Source: Halorhodospira halophila SL1 (GTDB lineage Bacteria > Pseudomonadota > Gammaproteobacteria > Nitrococcales > Halorhodospiraceae). Taken from it: 32,000 nucleotides of DNA. The notes beneath the pieces are model-generated. The model was not told the origin of the DNA. It was given only the letters and a program-made list of their open reading frames with translations, and did not search any database. Shown in pieces: positions 10,849 to 32,000 of this stretch (its first letter is position 1; every line of letters starts with the position of its first letter). The stretch lies in NCBI RefSeq assembly GCF_000015585.1, contig NC_008789.1, positions 750,001 through 782,000 of the forward strand. The letters are read 5' to 3'. The position numbers and the translations under genes are program-made.

Positions 10849-10923
10849 GCTCCCATCGTCTAGCGGTTAGGACGCCGCCCTCTCAAGGCGGAAACAGGGG
10901 TTCGAATCCCCTTGGGAGCGCCA
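10849..10923 (+). tRNA. tRNA-Glu, anticodon CUC, with an encoded CCA end
   Basis: The sequence is GCTCCCATCGTCTAGCGGTTAGGACGCCGCCCTCTCAAGGCGGAAACAGGGGTTCGAATCCCCTTGGGAGCGCCA. The acceptor stem GCTCCCA/TGGGAGC has 7 bp. The anticodon stem is CCGCC/GGCGG with loop C-T-CTC-A-A. The T-arm is AGGGG-TTCGAAT-CCCCT, the discriminator is G and the 3' end is CCA. The overall sequence is collinear with E. coli tRNA-Glu. Confidence 0.93.
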
Positions 10924-25897: not shown

Positions 25898-26392
25898 CTA
25901 GACGCGCAGATGGCGCTCGCCGCGGCTGATGCCGATGACACCGGAGCGGACCACCTCCAGGATGTTGCTCGGGCCGATGGCCTCGATGAAGGCGTCGAGC
26001 TTGTCACTCGTGCCGGTCATCTCGATGGTATAGATCTTCTCGGTGACGTCGAGGATGCGGCCACGGAAGATGTCCGTCAGGCGCTTGAACTCCTCGCGCT
26101 GCTCGGCAACGCCGGCGGTGACCTTGATCAGCATCATCTCGCGCTCGATGTGCTTGCCCTCGGTCATGTCGACGACCTTGATCACATCGAGCAGCTTGTT
26201 CAGCTGCTTGATGATCTGCTCGATGATCTGATCGTCGCCGATGGTGACCAGGGTCAGCCGCGAGATGCTCGGGTCGTCGGTGGGAGCCACCGTCAGGCAC
26301 TCGATGTTGTAGCCACGGGCCGTGAACATCCCGGAGATGCGCGACAGCGCTCCGGATTCGTTCTCCACCAGCATCGAGATGATGTGCCGCAT
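25898..26392 (-). CDS. ilvH: Acetolactate synthase small (regulatory) subunit
   Basis: Translation from the ATG at 26392 gives 164 aa, reading MRHIISMLVENESGALSRISGMFTARGYNIECLTVAPTDDPSISRLTLV (an ACT domain), followed by an ALS_ss_C-like end. A GGGGGAGAG SD lies upstream. The remainder of the listed 206-aa ORF is not supported. Confidence 0.95.
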   Translation of the reverse strand: MRHIISMLVENESGALSRISGMFTARGYNIECLTVAPTDDPSISRLTLVTIGDDQIIEQIIKQLNKLLDVIKVVDMTEGKHIEREMMLIKVTAGVAEQREEFKRLTDIFRGRILDVTEKIYTIEMTGTSDKLDAFIEAIGPSNILEVVRSGVIGISRGERHLRV

Positions 26393-26484
26393 GTAGCTCT
26401 CCCCCGGGACCGCAGCGTGCGGAGTAAATGCGGGAAAATACTGGCAGGTGGGCTGGAGGTCAAGCAAGGCGAGCCCGCAACCGA

Positions 26485-26514
26485 TTGACCCTCGACACAC
26501 GCGCGAGCTATCTT
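26485..26514 (+). promoter_or_regulatory. Candidate sigma70 promoter (TTGACC-N18-TATCTT) for the plus-strand small secreted protein gene
   Basis: TTGACC lies at 26485-26490 and TATCTT at 26509-26514, about 28 nt upstream of the GGGAGG SD and ATG of the 26542 gene. The call is a motif match only. Confidence 0.3.
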
Positions 26515-26541
26515 CCATTTAAACCCTGCGCTTCGGGAGGA

Positions 26542-27009
26542 ATGATGAGGCGCGCGAACAGGCACTGGACGCTAGCCTTCGCCGGTTCAACGCTCGGCGT
26601 ATCGCTCCTTACCGCCGGCTCGGCGGGCGCCGAAACCCCTGGGTCAGACCAGGCCGACTTCACCCAAGAAGTGGAGGTAGTGGAGGCCGCCAGCGCCGAG
26701 ATCAAGGAACCGAACCCCCACCTCGAGCTGAACGGTGGCGCGCCCGTCACCGCAGGCGAGAGTGCTTCCGGGGCGTTCAAGTACCTCGTTGTGGGGCTCG
26801 GCACCATGGAGATCTCGTTCGATGGAACGCTGCAGGAGGCCCCCGACGGCGGCAGCGAGCATGCGAATCTAGAGGTCCCGGACGATCGGCACGAGTTCGT
26901 CAAACTGCTCCACAAAGACACGGGCGAGGTCACCGCCGAGACCGAGGAAGAGGCACCGTCCGGCGGCTACCAGTGGGAAGTGACGATCACGGCAGCCTAC
27001 GACTGGTGA
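26542..27009 (+). CDS. Small, very acidic secreted protein; paralogue 1 of the putative pilin-like subunit family
   Basis: The start is the tandem ATG ATG at 26542/26545, after GGGAGG. The signal peptide is MMRRANRHWTLAFAGSTLGVSLLTAGSAGA/ETP. The mature N-terminus has an alternating hydrophobic strand (DFTQEVEVVEA). An ISFDG motif is shared with paralogue 2. The C-terminus is GGYQWEVTITAAYDW-stop. Confidence 0.7.
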   Translation: MMRRANRHWTLAFAGSTLGVSLLTAGSAGAETPGSDQADFTQEVEVVEAASAEIKEPNPHLELNGGAPVTAGESASGAFKYLVVGLGTMEISFDGTLQEAPDGGSEHANLEVPDDRHEFVKLLHKDTGEVTAETEEEAPSGGYQWEVTITAAYDW

Positions 27010-27165
27010 TCCCCACGTCGGTGGACTGCCCCCGACCTCGCCCTTCCCCTGGACTGCTGACTGCGGAGTCGATGCGGACAGAGACCGGCGAGGCGGCCTA
27101 GAAACCAAGCCGCGGGAAGCGGCTCCCCCGATTACTGAGGCCTAGCGCATAGACGCCCGCCCCAT

Positions 27166-27756
27166 TCAGAGGTCGTACTCCGCGGTCGCCGTGATGGTTG
27201 TAGAGTAGTCTCCGGAAGCTCCTTCGGGGATATGGTCCTTCTTGAGGAAGGCCTCAACCGGCACCCGCTTTTCCCCATCATTCATGTTGAACCGGTGAGA
27301 GTTCGAGTTGGACTCCGGCGCCACGCAGAGGTCGATCGAATCGACACCATGCTGATCGGAGGTCAACGGGTAGACTTCATATTGACCATCATCCTGTCCT
27401 CGGTCGTTGCACGCACCCTCAGCGTCATGGGCACCGTCAAAGCTCACCTTGAAGTCTGCCCCTGGCTCACCGGTGAAATCCAGGCAGATGGGCGGATCCT
27501 GCCTCTCCCCCATAGACAGATCCTGCTGCCCAGCCACGAAGGGGCCCAGATGGACGACCCTGTTGGCGCAGCTCTCCTGCATATCAATAGGTTGGGCCAC
27601 GGTGAGCTCCGTCGTAAATGTATCCCGAGCCGATTCGGGCTCCGCGAAGGCCATCACCGAGACGCCCAGAAGCGCAGCGCCCAAGGCCACTGCCTTGCGC
27701 CGCACGCCTGTCGCGCGATCCGTGCCCCACTCCCTGGCTGAACTGACCGCCCCCAT
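27166..27756 (-). CDS. Small acidic secreted protein; paralogue 2 (post-usher position, tip-subunit/adhesin-like)
   Basis: The ATG at 27756 has a GGAGG 5 nt upstream. The signal peptide is RRKAVALGAALLGVSVMAFA/EPE. The mature N-terminus is DTFTTELTVAQPI. The protein has four Cys, a VSFDG motif and the C-terminus SGDYSTTITATAEYDL-stop. It lies 45 nt downstream of the usher-like gene on the same strand. Confidence 0.7.
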   Translation of the reverse strand: MGAVSSAREWGTDRATGVRRKAVALGAALLGVSVMAFAEPESARDTFTTELTVAQPIDMQESCANRVVHLGPFVAGQQDLSMGERQDPPICLDFTGEPGADFKVSFDGAHDAEGACNDRGQDDGQYEVYPLTSDQHGVDSIDLCVAPESNSNSHRFNMNDGEKRVPVEAFLKKDHIPEGASGDYSTTITATAEYDL

Positions 27757-27801
27757 AAGGCCCTCCTCAAAACACGCTGCAAGAGCAGCCTGCAACCGAC
27801 A

Positions 27802-30735
27802 TCAGTCACCCTCTTCCGCCAGTTCCAATTCTTCCTGATGCTGCCAGTGGGTGATCTCGTCCAGCGGCGAACGATCCGCCGGGACCATCACACGATCACC
27901 GTCTTCGACCTCGCCGTTGAGGATCACCACCTCCTCGTAGAGCGACTCCAGGCCACCTTCGACTTGCTCCGCACCCAGGCGATCAAGGAGTTGCGCCAGG
28001 TGATCGCGGAGGGTGTGGCTCGAGTCGTAGCTGAAGGTGATCTGCTCGACCGCCTCTGCCGGCGAAGCGACCCGGACGATCTCACCACCGTCATGGATCG
28101 TGAGATCCTGATGACTCACCAGATCACCATCCCCCTCAACGCTGATGCGCTGCGCCGTGGCGGTCTGCGGGACATCCAGGCGCTCTGCCTGCTCCTCCGA
28201 AGCGCGCACCAGATACCCTCCCGGCGGCAGCTGATCCAGGATGAAGAGACCATCGAAGACACTGCGATCCGTCTGGACCACCTCCCCGGTTTCGGTATCC
28301 ACCGCCTCCATCTCGAAACCGGAGACCTCCGATGGCTCTGCCGTGCCACGCTGGCGACGAACCACGCCATCCACCTCGCCCGTGAGGTGCAGCTCGAAAT
28401 CCAGGGGGAGTACCCGACCCGGGCGCGGCTCGAAGCTTACCCCCCGGGTTGCAGGTTGGACGAAGGGATTGTCGATCGACCCCACATCCACCTCCACGTT
28501 GACCGGATCGTGGGGATCCAGACGGGCGGCCCAGGCCTCCCCGTTCTCATCGGTGCCCCCGCAGCTGCGGCCTGCACAGACATCGACCCCCTCCACGGGC
28601 TCGCCATCCTGATGAACCCTTGCCATCACCGCCCCGTGATCGTAGCCGCGCCCGGCCTCGGGATCCGGGTACCACCCCCCGGCAGGATGGGGCAGCCCTC
28701 CCACATCCAGGCCGACCGACACCTGCCACCGACCCCCCGTATCCACCTGACCTTGCCCCGAGAAGCGCCAGTACTCGCGAGCAGTACGGGAAATGCCCAG
28801 ACGGAGGTTATGAGGACGGTCATTGAAGCTGCCGCGCACCTGGGCACTGCCCCGCCAGTTGTCATGAAGGCTCTGACTGTACTCGGCGTTGGCGCTATCC
28901 AGCTCCGCCTCGGGCGCCAGGCCATAGCTCACACCGAGGTTCAGCCGCCCCTCCCGATAACGCCCCCAGCGTGTCTGCAGGCTGCCCTGCGCGGAAGGGT
29001 CGCCGTCATCCGCCTGGCTCACGGTCAGCGAATGCCGGAGCCGCTGACCGCCGATGCTCACGTTTTCGCGGGTGCGCAGGCGTTGCCAAGTCGACTCGCC
29101 GTCCGCGGACTCCTGATGCTCGTAGCGCAGACGGGTGCGCAGCGGCCCCAAAGAGCCGCGCACTTGCAACTCGTGGCCGTGACGCAAGTCACCGCTGACG
29201 CGGCTACGCAGCTCGTCGGTCTCCAGGCCATCCACCAGGGTGTACTCGTAGTCCAGGCTCCACGCGCCCAGACCGCGCTCCAGCGCGAGCTGCCAAGCCC
29301 GGCCTTGGTCATTCTCGAAGGCACCGCGAAGACGGCCCCAAACCCCGAACGCACTGAACGAGGCGTCCGCCCCGACCAGCTCTCGGCGCGTCAGCTCGTC
29401 CTCCTCGTCATCCGGCTCCATGTAGTGGAGGTCGCCGCCGACCGTCAGGGTCTCGGTCACCCCGACGTCCATCCGCGCCGCCGCGCGCCGGTCCTGGTCA
29501 TCGCGCGGCTGGTGCTCATAGAGACTGACCCCCTCTCGGCTGGCATCCAGGCTGTAGTGCACCATGCCCGGCGGCAGCAGCCCCGGGCCGATCTCAATCG
29601 TCCGCGAGATGGTCTCGCGCTCGCCGTGGGGTCCGTAGAACTCAATGGTGTAAGGGTTGGTGCCCGGCCGGGCGTCAATGTCCTCGAACTCGTGGCGATC
29701 CGTGTCCACATCGTGTGCAAAGTCGACCAGATCGCCGTCGCGATAGAGCTCGACGTCCCAGCCCTCGGGAACCTCCACCTCGATGGACTGATCGGTAAAC
29801 GTGGTACGCGCCATACCCTCCGGTCGGTTCGTCAGGGTCACCCCCATCCCGGAGCCGCCACGCCGGATCAGGTCGTACCGGGGCGCGCGCACCCGCCCCA
29901 GCTCGTAGCGCTCCAGGGCCGGGTGGCCGACCTGCTGCCCGAGGGTCCCGTCGAAGCGCCGGATTCCGTCGGTGTCATTCGCCTGTAACCGCCACTCCGC
30001 CTCATGCCAGAGGAGATCTCCAGCGCCTGCGAGATTACCGCTGGTGCTGCTACCGTTCCCGCTTTGCTGGTGATTGAGGCTCAGGGACCATGCAGGACGG
30101 GTCATGAAACGGGCCGGCAGCGGTTCACGGGGCAGCCACTCCTCACCGCCGATACCCGCCCCGTCATCGGTCAGTCGTGCCCACCGGGCCTCGCGCTCCA
30201 GACGGCTAAGGATCGGCAATTCCTCGTCCGCACGCATGTGGACCTCAGCGCGGCGCGGGCGATATTCGAAGCCAACGGGCAGGAACTCCTGGATGGCATC
30301 CTCACGGAAGTAGATGTCATCGTGCTCTTGGATCCAATCCTCTTCCTCAAGGATCAGCGGGCGGTCGCCGACCTCGCCCATGCCGCTGGCGGTATCGAAG
30401 GAGACCGTCCGGTCCGGATCGAGGACCCAGCCGGAGACCTGCCCCTCAAGCGGGTCGACCTCGACCGCCAGCTCCAGATGGCGGGCGAGCTGGCCCAATG
30501 GGTAGTAGATCTCCCCTTTGCGCTGGAGCATATACTCGCTCTCGGAGAGGGGGTAGCCTTCCAGCTCCACGCGCAGCACCATATCCTCCACCCCCTCGCC
30601 ATCATCCTCTTCCTGGAGGCTCTCCACAGAAAGCGGGGCAGGCGCGCTGGGCGACCAGAACGCCCCCGCCGCGGCCAGGAGCCAAACCGCGACCGCAACA
30701 GACCGCCCAGTCGCACCCACGCGAGACCATCTCAC
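27802..30735 (-). CDS. Outer-membrane fimbrial usher-like protein (977 aa) with an extended C-terminal region
   Basis: The N-terminus has a signal peptide (SVAVAVWLLAAAGA). The usher-type N-domain pattern is LRVELEGYPLSESEYMLQRKGEIYYPLGQLARHLEL. A plug-like segment is IEVEVPEGWDVELYRDGDLVDFAHDVDTDRHEFEDIDARPGTNPYTIEFYGPHGERETISRTI, which parallels the FimD/PapC pattern. Long alternating Tyr/Arg/Gly/Ser-rich stretches are consistent with barrel strands. The GTG start at 30735 lies 4 nt after the chaperone stop. Assignment is by motif-level recognition only. Confidence 0.6.
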   Translation of the reverse strand: MRWSRVGATGRSVAVAVWLLAAAGAFWSPSAPAPLSVESLQEEDDGEGVEDMVLRVELEGYPLSESEYMLQRKGEIYYPLGQLARHLELAVEVDPLEGQVSGWVLDPDRTVSFDTASGMGEVGDRPLILEEEDWIQEHDDIYFREDAIQEFLPVGFEYRPRRAEVHMRADEELPILSRLEREARWARLTDDGAGIGGEEWLPREPLPARFMTRPAWSLSLNHQQSGNGSSTSGNLAGAGDLLWHEAEWRLQANDTDGIRRFDGTLGQQVGHPALERYELGRVRAPRYDLIRRGGSGMGVTLTNRPEGMARTTFTDQSIEVEVPEGWDVELYRDGDLVDFAHDVDTDRHEFEDIDARPGTNPYTIEFYGPHGERETISRTIEIGPGLLPPGMVHYSLDASREGVSLYEHQPRDDQDRRAAARMDVGVTETLTVGGDLHYMEPDDEEDELTRRELVGADASFSAFGVWGRLRGAFENDQGRAWQLALERGLGAWSLDYEYTLVDGLETDELRSRVSGDLRHGHELQVRGSLGPLRTRLRYEHQESADGESTWQRLRTRENVSIGGQRLRHSLTVSQADDGDPSAQGSLQTRWGRYREGRLNLGVSYGLAPEAELDSANAEYSQSLHDNWRGSAQVRGSFNDRPHNLRLGISRTAREYWRFSGQGQVDTGGRWQVSVGLDVGGLPHPAGGWYPDPEAGRGYDHGAVMARVHQDGEPVEGVDVCAGRSCGGTDENGEAWAARLDPHDPVNVEVDVGSIDNPFVQPATRGVSFEPRPGRVLPLDFELHLTGEVDGVVRRQRGTAEPSEVSGFEMEAVDTETGEVVQTDRSVFDGLFILDQLPPGGYLVRASEEQAERLDVPQTATAQRISVEGDGDLVSHQDLTIHDGGEIVRVASPAEAVEQITFSYDSSHTLRDHLAQLLDRLGAEQVEGGLESLYEEVVILNGEVEDGDRVMVPADRSPLDEITHWQHQEELELAEEGD

Positions 30736-30739
30736 CGAC

Positions 30740-31606
30740 TTACTCGAGGGTGACGGTGCGCTCCGCCTTCACGTGACCACCGCTCTCGCCAAAGCCCTCC
30801 TCGTCATCCTCGAAGGCCCGATACACCACCCGCAACTCATCGCCCGGGGCCACATCGTGATTCTCAACCGAGAAGGGCAGAATCCGCTCATCCATCGATG
30901 TGGAGACAGCCGCCCGAGAGCGTTCGTGGATCGGCTCATCCTCTCCGGGCCGGTAGACCTCCAGGGAACCGTAAACCCCCCGCTCACCGTTGCGGGCCAC
31001 CGTGATCTCCACTGAGTCCTCGCCGTCCGCGTCTTCCGCTGGTTCGAAGCGAGCACCCCGAATCTCCGGCTCGCCGTCCGGATCACCGACTAGGATACCG
31101 ACCGGAATCGTCATGGCGAAGAGCGCCTGAATATCGACGGCCACCTCGTCGTCCTCGAGTTCCTCCTCGGCGAATGCCTGTCCGTCGGCGGTTGGCATGG
31201 TCCGAACGGCAAAACGGGCGCGATACTCGCCCGGATCGATCTCATCCGGCACACGGGACATGATGCGCACGGTCTGGCTCTCGCCCGGCTGGAGGGTCAT
31301 CTGGCGGGGATGGTGGCGCAGCAGGTCGGCCCCGTGGTGGCCCCGCTCCCCGGCTTCAGGCTCCACGGGATCAATCAGCTCCGAACGCCCGTAGGCATCC
31401 GCCTCGACATCGGTCACCAGAACCCGGTACTCTTGGACCTCATCGCTCTGGTTAAACACCTCGACCTGCGCGCTGCGCTGCTGATCGTCGAAGAACAGCC
31501 GCTGCGGCGCGATCTGAATCGCCGCCGACGCCTGCGTCGCGGCAAATACCAAAGTCGTTGCCACGCAACCAACAGCTCCCCAGTGACACCTAACCACCCG
31601 CCTCAT
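30740..31606 (-). CDS. Periplasmic PapD-like pilus chaperone candidate (288 aa)
   Basis: An AGGAG SD lies 8 nt before the ATG at 31606. The signal peptide is GCVATTLVFAATQASA/A. The sequence continues IQIAPQRLFFDDQQRSAQVEVFNQSDEVQEYRV (first strand with a conserved-position Arg, then x-V-x-V-x-N). It also has HPRQMTLQPGESQTVRI and FAMTIPVGILVG, followed by a second beta-rich domain. Assignment is by motif-level recognition only. Confidence 0.6.
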   Translation of the reverse strand: MRRVVRCHWGAVGCVATTLVFAATQASAAIQIAPQRLFFDDQQRSAQVEVFNQSDEVQEYRVLVTDVEADAYGRSELIDPVEPEAGERGHHGADLLRHHPRQMTLQPGESQTVRIMSRVPDEIDPGEYRARFAVRTMPTADGQAFAEEELEDDEVAVDIQALFAMTIPVGILVGDPDGEPEIRGARFEPAEDADGEDSVEITVARNGERGVYGSLEVYRPGEDEPIHERSRAAVSTSMDERILPFSVENHDVAPGDELRVVYRAFEDDEEGFGESGGHVKAERTVTLE

Positions 31607-31688
31607 GGATTTCGCTCCTATCCGCTATCATTGCCCTAATGACCCTTGGGGCACCCCCCCATCCGCTTCCAATCTAAAACCGAGGTTT

Positions 31689-31717
31689 CCCCGCCTCCTC
31701 CCTGGGGAGAAGGCGGG
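31689..31717 (-). promoter_or_regulatory. Strong GC-rich stem-loop between the upstream subunit gene and the chaperone gene
   Basis: The minus strand reads CCCGCCTTCTCC-CCAG-GGAGGAGGCGGG. This is a 12-bp stem with one G-U pair and a 4-nt loop, starting 19 nt after the TAG of the upstream gene. A TTTT run lies 9 nt downstream, so it is not a textbook intrinsic terminator. Confidence 0.5.
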
Positions 31718-31735
31718 ATCCCAACGCGGCGGAGA

Positions 31736-32000
31736 CTAGTCCGCGTACTCAACCGATACAGTGAATGTATTGCTGTATACTCCGGCGTTTTCAGGGGCCG
31801 TACTATAATCCTCGCACTGATTACAAAATTCGACCCACTCATGCTTCTCCCCGTCTTCCCCTAAGGCGATCGGGTCACTGGAGCTATTGTTGTCGTCAAA
31901 ACCGAATGAGGAAGAGAGGGGAATAATCGTATCGTGGTCGCCGTTCTCTAGCTCGAGATAAACGGTGTGACCATCAGGGTTGTGAATGTCGCCGTCAAGG
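31736..32000 (-). CDS. C-terminal part of a small acidic protein; paralogue 3 of the putative pilin-like family (in the major-subunit position; the gene runs off the right edge)
   Basis: This ORF is not in the supplied track because it has no start in the window. My manual minus-strand translation is open from 32000 to the TAG at 31738-31736. It reads ...LDGDIHNPDGHTVYLELENGDHDTIIPLSSSFGFDDNNSSSDPIALGEDGEKHEWVEFCNQCEDYSTAPENAGVYSNTFTVSVEYAD-stop. The C-terminal motif is shared with the genes at 26542 and 27166. GC is about 50% (hand count of 31741-31860). Confidence 0.6.
   Translation of the reverse strand, partial: LDGDIHNPDGHTVYLELENGDHDTIIPLSSSFGFDDNNSSSDPIALGEDGEKHEWVEFCNQCEDYSTAPENAGVYSNTFTVSVEYAD

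Follow-up and report, generated by a model that had tools for sequence, protein, structure and literature searches.

A chaperone–usher-type locus with hyper-acidic DUF4402-like candidate subunits in Halorhodospira halophila

A family of acidic paralogs beside a PapD-like chaperone and a predicted, cryptic usher

The end of a 32,000-nucleotide stretch of the Halorhodospira halophila SL1 genome (contig NC_008789.1, positions 750,001 to 782,000; hereafter the window, numbered from its first letter) carries genes for a family of small acidic proteins, referred to here as P1 to P4, together with genes for a PapD-like periplasmic chaperone and for a large protein with the predicted fold of an outer-membrane usher. 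We consider it probable that P1–P4 are chaperone–usher subunits that are assembled by strand complementation. The initial annotation of the window, made from the letters alone, had likened the C-terminal strand of P1–P3 to that of chaperone–usher pilins, and this comparison was upheld by the genes that adjoin them, which encode a PapD_N-like chaperone and a FimD/PapC-like usher, and by the recurrence of the same type of operon with genes of the DUF4402 family (PF14352). Our analyses also support the placement of P1–P4 within the DUF4402 superfamily, of which they would be hyper-acidic and highly diverged members, a homology that is shown by sequence profiles, intermediate sequences and the register of shared motifs.

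Five open reading frames (ORFs) occupy the window from ilvC/ilvH to its end: P1, P2, a 977-amino-acid (aa) ORF, a 288-aa ORF and the 3' part of P3. Most of P3 and all of a fourth paralog, P4, lie outside the window, on a 3.2-kb contig that extends past the window end (L001) and that was reached through an exact match to the 288-aa protein. This contig supplies the complete P3, whose longest ORF is 186 aa and whose annotated form is 171 aa. The genes are as follows:

26542/26545..27009, plus strand: P1, DUF4402-like precursor of 155 aa (154 aa from the second ATG, 26545), database id P0003
27166..27756, minus strand: P2, DUF4402-like precursor of 196 aa with a mature form of 158 aa, database id P0001
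27802..30735, minus strand: usher, 977 aa with a GTG start, database version P0007
30740..31606, minus strand: PapD-like periplasmic chaperone, 288 aa
31736..>32000, minus strand: P3, C-terminal 87 residues within the window and the remainder at L001:1663-2223, database id P0002
L001:1107-1541, past the window end, operon strand, upstream of P3: P4, the fourth paralog, 144 aa

The order on the minus strand is P4-P3-chaperone-usher-P2, with P4 as the first gene of the operon, while P1 is convergent and has its own start. The stop codon of the chaperone gene is 4 nucleotides (nt) from the GTG start of the usher gene, and P2 is immediately downstream of the usher, with the longest possible P2 ORF beginning at 27795.

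Sequence features of P1–P4

The C-termini of P1, P2 and P3 are as initially described, with each protein stopping two residues past a conserved Tyr. When the 32 kb were searched in six-frame translation with the regular expression G.Y..[TE][IVF][TE][AVI][TS][AV].Y, only three sites were found in the entire window, and these were the ends of P1, P2 and P3, each two residues ahead of the stop codon:

26962..27006, plus strand: C-terminal motif of P1, candidate F strand, GGYQWEVTITAAYDW then stop; a match to the expression that aligns with the DUF4402 tail G-x-Y-x-G-x-F-x-V-x-V-x-Y
27169..27213, minus strand: C-terminal motif of P2, GDYSTTITATAEYDL then stop; a match to the expression
31739..31783, minus strand: C-terminal motif of P3, GVYSNTFTVSVEYAD then stop; a match to the expression

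The C-terminus of P4 is GDYEVTVEATANYDEL. The initially noted pattern of Cys residues (none in P1, four in P2 and at least two in P3) agreed with our counts of 0, 4 and 2, and P4 has none. Also present were the [IV]SFDG motif reported to be common to P1 and P2, for which the P3 counterpart is ISLDG, and the alternating N-terminal segments of these two proteins. As read from their sequences, P1, P2 and P3 each have a Sec-type leader with a basic n-region, a hydrophobic core and an AxA-type site (AGA/E, AFA/E and AVA/D, respectively, with the slash marking the site), and the leaders of P1–P4 would be expected to be cleaved. The mature paralogs are unusual in their composition, having 20–33% Asp+Glu and 30–35% Ala+Thr+Ser+Gly versus 6–8% and 44–53%, respectively, in typical DUF4402 proteins. 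The mature form of P4 has 33% Asp+Glu and is without Lys or Arg. An acidic proteome is typical of an extreme halophile, and the Asp+Glu content of the paralogs is consistent with this.

The paralogs are homologous over their full length

Pairwise BLASTP searches among the paralogs aligned the tails only, with E-values of 0.005–0.013, and a word-indexed protein search with all four returned Halorhodospira proteins only. For profile comparisons, the paralogs were grouped with orthologs from an exhaustive hidden Markov model (HMM) search of 1.84 billion representative proteins. Orthologs of P1 have about 67% identity. Comparison of P2 with the P3/P4 group using hhalign gave a probability of 97–98% and E-values of 1e-10 to 1e-11 over 130–134 columns, and that of the P1 group with the P3/P4 group gave a probability of 94% and E-values of 3–8e-8, with the comparisons between paralog groups spanning 113–134 columns. 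In addition, an HMM built without P1 or P2 recovered both of them from the six-frame ORFs of the window (E-values of 1.6e-12 and 0.0075) and nothing else. The paralogy that had been proposed was therefore sustained by profile alignment with full-length P3, as the similarity spans the full length of the proteins at 94–98% probability and, based on these alignments and the HMM recovery, is not limited to the last 12 residues.

P1–P4 as divergent members of the DUF4402 superfamily

The link to DUF4402 was reached via the neighboring usher, for which 13 homologs were identified. Among six distant usher homologs whose contigs were examined, four were in the arrangement of one or more PF14352 genes, a chaperone-like gene of ~280 aa and then the large usher-homolog gene itself (~900 aa); the PF14352 domain annotations in these four metagenome loci were precomputed. 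The tail of the PF14352 protein at locus L003, GSYSNTFSISVEY, is nearly identical to that of P3, AGVYSNTFTVSVEYAD, and another syntenic DUF4402 protein begins ANVTLQVWQAISV, for which the P4 counterpart is FDVSLDVWQPIDV.

Profile–profile comparison of six pooled Halorhodospira proteins with six syntenic DUF4402 proteins gave a probability of 95.9% (E-value of 6e-9), and the same comparison with the leaders removed gave 91–92%. The P3/P4 group aligned with either the 6 syntenic or 30 typical DUF4402 proteins at probabilities of 96–98% (E-values of 1e-9 to 1e-12), and the pooled six-protein profile aligned more weakly with the 30 typical proteins (23–52%, E-values of 9e-4 to 2e-5). Reversed-sequence controls for the DUF4402 comparison had E-values of 0.008–0.06, which were not significant. 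An exhaustive HMM search with a Halorhodospira-only profile returned small full-length intermediates, four of seven of which had a sub-threshold PF14352 match.

The motifs of the two groups are in agreement with these comparisons. In typical DUF4402 proteins the C-terminal sequence is G-x-Y-x-G-x-F-x-V-x-V-x-Y-[NQ], the penultimate residue being aromatic in 96 of 162, and the N-terminal sequence is A-T-A-T-A-T-I-I-x-P-I, which is in the same register as the F-x-T/V-x-L/V-x-V-x-x-P-I of the Halorhodospira proteins, where the hydrophobic residues are bulkier. As a group, the DUF4402 proteins and their operons are uncharacterized. Features that they have in common with the Halorhodospira proteins are a Sec leader, an alternating strand at the N-terminus with P-[IVL]-x-[IVLF] after it, a central F-x-V-x-G-e...[YF]-x-[IV] hairpin and a C-terminal G-x-Y-x-x-x-F/I-x-V-x-V-x-Y strand, and the neighboring chaperone and usher families and the gene order are identical. 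The two groups differ in the number of residues that trail the terminal Tyr (0–1 in typical members versus 2–3 in Halorhodospira), in the candidate donor residues (small Ala residues versus Phe, Leu and Val) and in acidity, and the Halorhodospira proteins fall below the Pfam cut-off.

None of the paralogs was over any threshold in direct Pfam and NCBIfam scans, and an HMM of DUF4402 proteins only, run against single sequences, weakly detected P3 and P4 and did not detect P1 and P2. The paralogs probably miss the Pfam cut-off because of their acid-rich composition (20–33% Asp+Glu versus 6–8% in typical members). With regard to the initial suggestion of SCPU/DUF4402-type subunits, the DUF4402 part holds on the basis of profile homology, motifs and synteny, and the SCPU part was not supported at the sequence level, as the SCPU family (PF05229) had no match in P1–P4 and matched only one DUF4402 protein among 36 aligned family members, with an E-value of 0.29.

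The PapD-like chaperone

The 288-aa protein matched PapD_N with 19.5 bits (E-value of 1e-3; the cut-off is 23), and 48 of the 67 members of its family matched PapD_N at E-values ≤0.01, the best being 3.8e-9; PapD_C had no match in the chaperone. A search of the PDB with the family profile gave weak matches to FimC, CupB2, PapD, CfaA and 4ncd. In hhalign the profile matched FimC alone only weakly (P 0.004), and the Arg8 motif was nevertheless aligned. Where FimC has Arg8 in the alignment, 64 of 67 family members have a basic residue (chaperone positions are counted from the residue after the initiator Met, as the alignment reference is without the start codon). One Pro is invariant across chaperone–usher chaperones (PMC4654587), and by its motif this residue would correspond to P99 here. 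A near-invariant E-Y-R is located in the strand predicted to be F1, with the Arg present in 63 of 67 members; in non-classical chaperones the anchor is Arg89 (PMC4654587). The following segment of the 288-aa protein may represent its G1 strand:

Candidate chaperone G1 strand, 288-aa protein: VAVDIQALFAMTIPV

Taken as sequence evidence, these features support the designation of the 288-aa protein as a putative divergent periplasmic chaperone of the PapD_N family.

The 977-aa protein has the predicted fold of an usher

An AlphaFold2 model of the 977-aa protein from a 13-sequence alignment had a predicted local distance difference test (pLDDT) score of 78.8 and comprised a domain at the N-terminus, an extended series of beta-hairpins that form a large beta-barrel, and C-terminal beta-sandwich domains. 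A small beta-domain, which is inserted after ~6 strands of the barrel as read from the DSSP strand pattern only, holds the best-conserved motif of the family, GWDVELYRD. In a Foldseek search of the PDB the best match of the model was FimD (3rfz_B, with 907 columns aligned at an E-value of 2.5e-27), and FimD or PapC accounted for all of the top 17 matches. The next match was the staphylococcal adhesin SdrD at ~1e-8, which corresponds to the C-terminal SdrD_B-like domain, and other large beta-barrels were at ~1e-6 or weaker. The model thus supports the 977-aa protein being an outer-membrane usher by its predicted fold, with an N-terminal domain, a plugged barrel and C-terminal domains. An impression that the plug-domain motif is common to classical ushers was unsupported, as the hhalign comparison with FimD was not significant.

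A CarboxypepD_reg/SdrD_B-like (transthyretin-like) domain is present in 46 of 48 usher relatives, and the source annotations of the usher homologs are "hypothetical" or "carboxypeptidase-like regulatory domain-containing". At the C-terminus of the Halorhodospira ushers, ~100 additional residues (27802..28200, residues about 850–977) make up a tail that contains helix and that most relatives, which are 880–920 aa, do not have. A LysM-like motif was suspected in this tail and was not confirmed, and the tail had no Pfam match. The annotation of the usher as P0007 (941 aa) places the start 36 codons downstream from the GTG at 30735, which leaves out the signal-peptide-like N-terminus VAVAVWLLAAAGAF (30628..30735, minus strand). 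The annotated start is probably too short, since the longer ORF begins 4 nt from the chaperone stop codon and the ortholog of H. halochloris retains the N-terminus.

Candidate donor strands and a proposed assembly mechanism

The initial annotation had also drawn attention to a C-terminal strand motif and a donor-strand-like N-terminal segment, and both were found to be in register with DUF4402, with the role of the latter as a donor being putative. The candidate segments are:

26656..26688, plus strand: candidate donor strand of P1, DFTQEVEVVEA, mature residues 9–19, which aligns with F-x-[TV]-x-[LV]-x-V of P2–P4; putative function
27586..27624, minus strand: candidate donor strand and start of strand A of P2, DTFTTELTVAQPI, mature residues 7–19

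The P1 segment is in register with the A-T-A-T-A-T-I of typical DUF4402 proteins. In P2, the residues F, T, L and V are at −9, −7, −5 and −3 from the conserved Pro, and typical DUF4402 proteins have A, A, A and I/V at the same positions. A donor strand followed by strand A is the layout of known systems (PMC4654587), and the N-terminal segment has this same layout.

The AlphaFold2 model of mature P2, from an alignment of 36 sequences, is a beta-sandwich (pLDDT 69.5, predicted template modeling score 0.62) in which the C-terminal motif forms the final strand (residues 152–156). In this monomer model, residues 1–19 are assigned no intramolecular strand by DSSP. The 25 best PDB matches to the model were all chaperone–usher pilins or pilin domains, including FimF, FimG and FimA, the pilin domains of FimH and PapG, PapA, CsuA/B, Caf1 and SafA. 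No pilin and no usher was found when the PDB was searched by sequence with a paralog profile, the chaperone or the usher.

The mechanism of the classical and archaic chaperone–usher systems has been described (PMC4654587), and we infer that an incomplete fold, donor-strand complementation and exchange, and fiber formation apply to P1–P4 as well. A subunit in the periplasm would be an Ig-like beta-sandwich that has the C-terminal G-x-Y...Y motif as its last strand and lacks its seventh strand, which would be given in trans by the PapD-like chaperone. Chaperone–subunit complexes would then be taken up by the usher, acting as a FimD/PapC-like gated barrel, where the N-terminal F-x-T/V-x-L/V-x-V segment of an incoming subunit would displace the chaperone strand (donor-strand exchange), giving rise to a thin surface fiber. 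Based on the gene order we speculate that P4 and P3 are likely the major subunits, and that P2 and P1 are likely, and equally speculatively, minor, adaptor or terminating subunits.

Distribution of the operon

Species-representative genomes were scanned with one conserved usher peptide, GW[DA]VELY[RL][DNE], and 234 relatives were confirmed. The best 80 of these 234, on which the following counts are based, are from Chlorobiales, Acidobacteriota, Desulfobacterales, Myxococcota, Armatimonadota and Fibrobacteraceae, as well as from Alphaproteobacteria (Sphingomonadaceae, Micavibrio and Rhodospirillales) and Gammaproteobacteria (Pseudoalteromonas, Vibrio and others). An usher ORF was identified in 79 of the 80 loci, a chaperone in 76, and a chaperone plus 1–6 DUF4402-like genes in 69, with the prevailing gene order being D(n)-C-U (DUF4402, chaperone, usher). 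Some loci (L019, L032, L047 and L056) have much longer DUF4402-like proteins of 268–394 aa, which may be two-domain tip adhesins; there are none of this kind at the Halorhodospira locus.

The H. halochloris locus is composed of a GerE-type regulator, a P4 ortholog, a P3 ortholog, genes for the chaperone and the usher, and a convergent P1 ortholog. P2 is absent from it, and its flank is uvrA instead of ilvH. Accordingly, P1 belongs to the module, and P2 is an addition specific to the species.

A plausible, if still tentative, reading of these loci is that the module represents a distinct, unclassified and very broad chaperone–usher clade, characterized by DUF4402 subunits, a PapD_N-like chaperone and a cryptic usher that bears a CarboxypepD_reg domain, with a range that would take in Proteobacteria, Chlorobi, Acidobacteriota, Myxococcota, Armatimonadota, Fibrobacterota, Desulfobacterota and others. 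Such a clade would be overlooked by usher-based surveys because PF00577 is blind to its usher.

Evidence against the assignment and alternative explanations

Several results weigh against the designation of the locus as a chaperone–usher system with DUF4402-type subunits. No paralog attains the PF14352 gathering score of 25.2 bits: P3 scored 16.7 bits (E-value of 0.012, tail only) and P4 14.5 bits (E-value of 0.057), and P1 and P2 were without a PF14352 match even at E-values ≤10, such that their tie to DUF4402 is transitive only, through P3/P4. The pilin matches of the P2 model were weak, with E-values of 0.01–0.4, template modeling scores of 0.33–0.45 and probabilities of up to 0.97, and given these matches and a model of mediocre quality the incomplete fold is a putative one. 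The Tyr is followed by 2–3 residues rather than 0–1, which means that anchoring of the C-terminal carboxylate may differ. On the side of the chaperone, there is no obvious equivalent of the classical Lys112, as an invariant Pro is at that position; with a basic Arg8 equivalent, the E-Y-R and this Pro, sequence alone does not place the carboxylate anchor in the classical or the archaic class. The best PDB sequence match of the chaperone family was the enterococcal WxL-interacting protein EfmWxLIP1 (9i25/9i1y), with an E-value of 2.5e-4 over near full length. The Pfam Usher family (PF00577) had no significant match to the usher of the window, and it matched only one of 13 (E-value of 0.0017) and one of 48 (E-value of 0.006) relatives. 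Profiles of 13 or 48 usher members found no PDB usher by sequence, the hhalign comparison of the usher profile with FimD was not significant, and the usher was identified from one AlphaFold2 model built from 13 sequences.

In view of these points, we considered whether the machinery is of the chaperone–usher type and some or all of P1–P4 are exported as monomers or short oligomers that form a surface coat, adhesin or cap, with P1 especially being an independently expressed protein that merely has the common fold. This is unlikely, though it is the most probable of the alternatives. In its favor, the P1 gene runs on the opposite strand behind a promoter-like site of its own, P1 shows the weakest DUF4402 link, the P2 model is compatible with a groove or with no groove, and P1–P4 are all single-domain proteins at a locus with no obvious two-domain tip adhesin. 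However, all four proteins keep the alternating segment at the N-terminus and the strand motif at the C-terminus in the register of the family, the P1 ortholog of H. halochloris is still beside the usher despite different flanks, and multiple subunit genes per locus are the rule in this class. Much less probable is that the 288-aa protein and the small proteins form a WxL-interacting-like surface or peptidoglycan complex, without a pilus, and that the large protein is some other transport barrel. EfmWxLIP1 did top the PDB list for the 67-member profile, there were weak Pfam matches to WxLIP_PGBD, and WxLIP also appeared low in the list of P2 fold matches. Against these, PapD_N was matched by 48 of 67 chaperones versus 4 of 67 for WxLIP_PGBD, five of the nine PDB sequence matches were to true pilus chaperones, the usher match was ~20 orders of magnitude better than that of any other barrel, and the locus is a Gram-negative one with an outer-membrane barrel, whereas WxL systems belong to Gram-positive bacteria. 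As a separate observation, PapD-like chaperones and WxLIP proteins may be deeply related, as hinted by the ranking of EfmWxLIP1 above the pilus chaperones.

The explanation that the C-terminal motif is convergent or due to chance, with P1–P3 being unrelated small acidic secreted proteins, or that P1 is a DUF4399 protein, is effectively refuted. The tail-only BLASTP alignments and the name of one UniRef cluster, "DUF4399 domain-containing protein", which includes P0003 (P1), could be taken in its favor, but the profile alignments were significant over the full length, the HMM lacking P1 and P2 picked up both, the motif is restricted to these three ORF ends, and PF14347 had no match to P1 even at E-values ≤10. 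As such, the DUF4399 label looks wrong, and assembly of P1–P4 as chaperone–usher subunits is the explanation that we prefer.

Comparison with known chaperone–usher pili

The locus shares features with archaic (sigma) pili, such as Csu of Acinetobacter and CupE of Pseudomonas with their SCPU subunits. In both, the subunits are small, have a single domain and end in a G-x-Y...aromatic strand, several genes for subunits lie ahead of the chaperone and usher genes, and the distribution is broad and largely environmental. CsuA/B was among the P2 fold matches, although weakly (E-values of 0.1–0.3). The locus differs from archaic pili in that its subunits are without an SCPU match, its usher is unseen by PF00577, by which archaic ushers are recognized, it has no CsuE-like two-domain tip adhesin, and its chaperone has also stayed basic at the position that resembles the classical Arg8. 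In the chaperones of the Halorhodospira type, the near-invariant F1 Arg recalls the Arg89 anchor (PMC4654587).

With respect to classical pili (type 1 Fim and P pili Pap), FimD/PapC and the usher model can be superposed across about 900 columns, the chaperone has a PapD_N match and the P2 model is closest to FimF, FimG, FimA, PapA and the FimH pilin domain. A Gly located ~14 residues before the C-terminus of the Halorhodospira subunits, together with their near-terminal Tyr, recalls the signature of classical pilins. As differences from classical pili, the locus shows no significant sequence similarity to them at the level of the usher or the subunits, a Lys112 equivalent is not visible in its chaperone, and its usher has the CarboxypepD_reg/SdrD_B domain and the C-terminal tail described above.

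A full-text literature search found no paper on DUF4402, PF14352 or IPR025514, and a search joining chaperone–usher, usher-like and AlphaFold likewise found no paper; a DUF4402-type chaperone–usher class thus appears to be absent from the searchable literature. It is possible that CccS (slr1667) of Synechocystis, with its chaperone slr1668 (bioRxiv 10.1101/130278), is an experimentally studied relative and, if it is a DUF4402 protein, the nearest one. The known chaperone–usher mechanism most probably applies, and the system is therefore not of a new kind. Rather, the class looks like an unclassified, widespread chaperone–usher variant, with the Halorhodospira subunits forming an extreme and acidified branch of it.

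Flanking DNA and neighboring genes

Two consensus matches to regulatory elements were noted around the operon, and for neither type was the count above the shuffled expectation:

26485..26514, plus strand: promoter-like site TTGACC-18-TATCTT upstream of P1; consensus match only
31681..31693, minus strand: hairpin resembling a terminator, between the P3 and chaperone genes; consensus match only

It is possible that the hairpin is an attenuator that follows the subunit genes. An inverted repeat or terminator was looked for between the convergent P1 and P2 genes, and none was found there. The G+C content is 0.60–0.68 across 26001..32000 versus about 0.70–0.77 over most of the window; relocation or acquisition of the module could account for this, as could simply an abundance of GAN codons (Asp and Glu). 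Divergent from the operon, and outside the window, is a gene for a product with HTH_3 and PAS domains (L001:2-745, minus strand), which runs into the contig edge at LTGLPDRES, a sequence that resembles the start of a GGDEF domain. This neighbor may regulate the pilus operon in a cyclic di-GMP-linked manner; the gene upstream of the H. halochloris operon encodes the GerE/LuxR-type regulator instead. The sole RNA gene in the window, according to ARAGORN and Rfam, is a tRNA-Glu (CTC) at 10849..10923 on the plus strand.

Implications

If the assignment is correct, a Pfam domain of unknown function would gain a concrete and testable function as a pilus subunit, and the family behind annotations such as "hypothetical" and "carboxypeptidase regulatory-like" would be identified as ushers, of which a pattern of nine residues alone yields 234 relatives. 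The whole class would escape chaperone–usher classifications that are based on ushers. For H. halophila, the prediction is a surface fiber, hitherto unreported. The Halorhodospira locus would be a salt-adapted, hyper-acidic branch of the clade in which donor-strand assembly must function at molar salt, and as such it would offer a natural experiment on how a fold that depends on the insertion of a hydrophobic strand tolerates 20–33% acidic residues in an extreme halophile.

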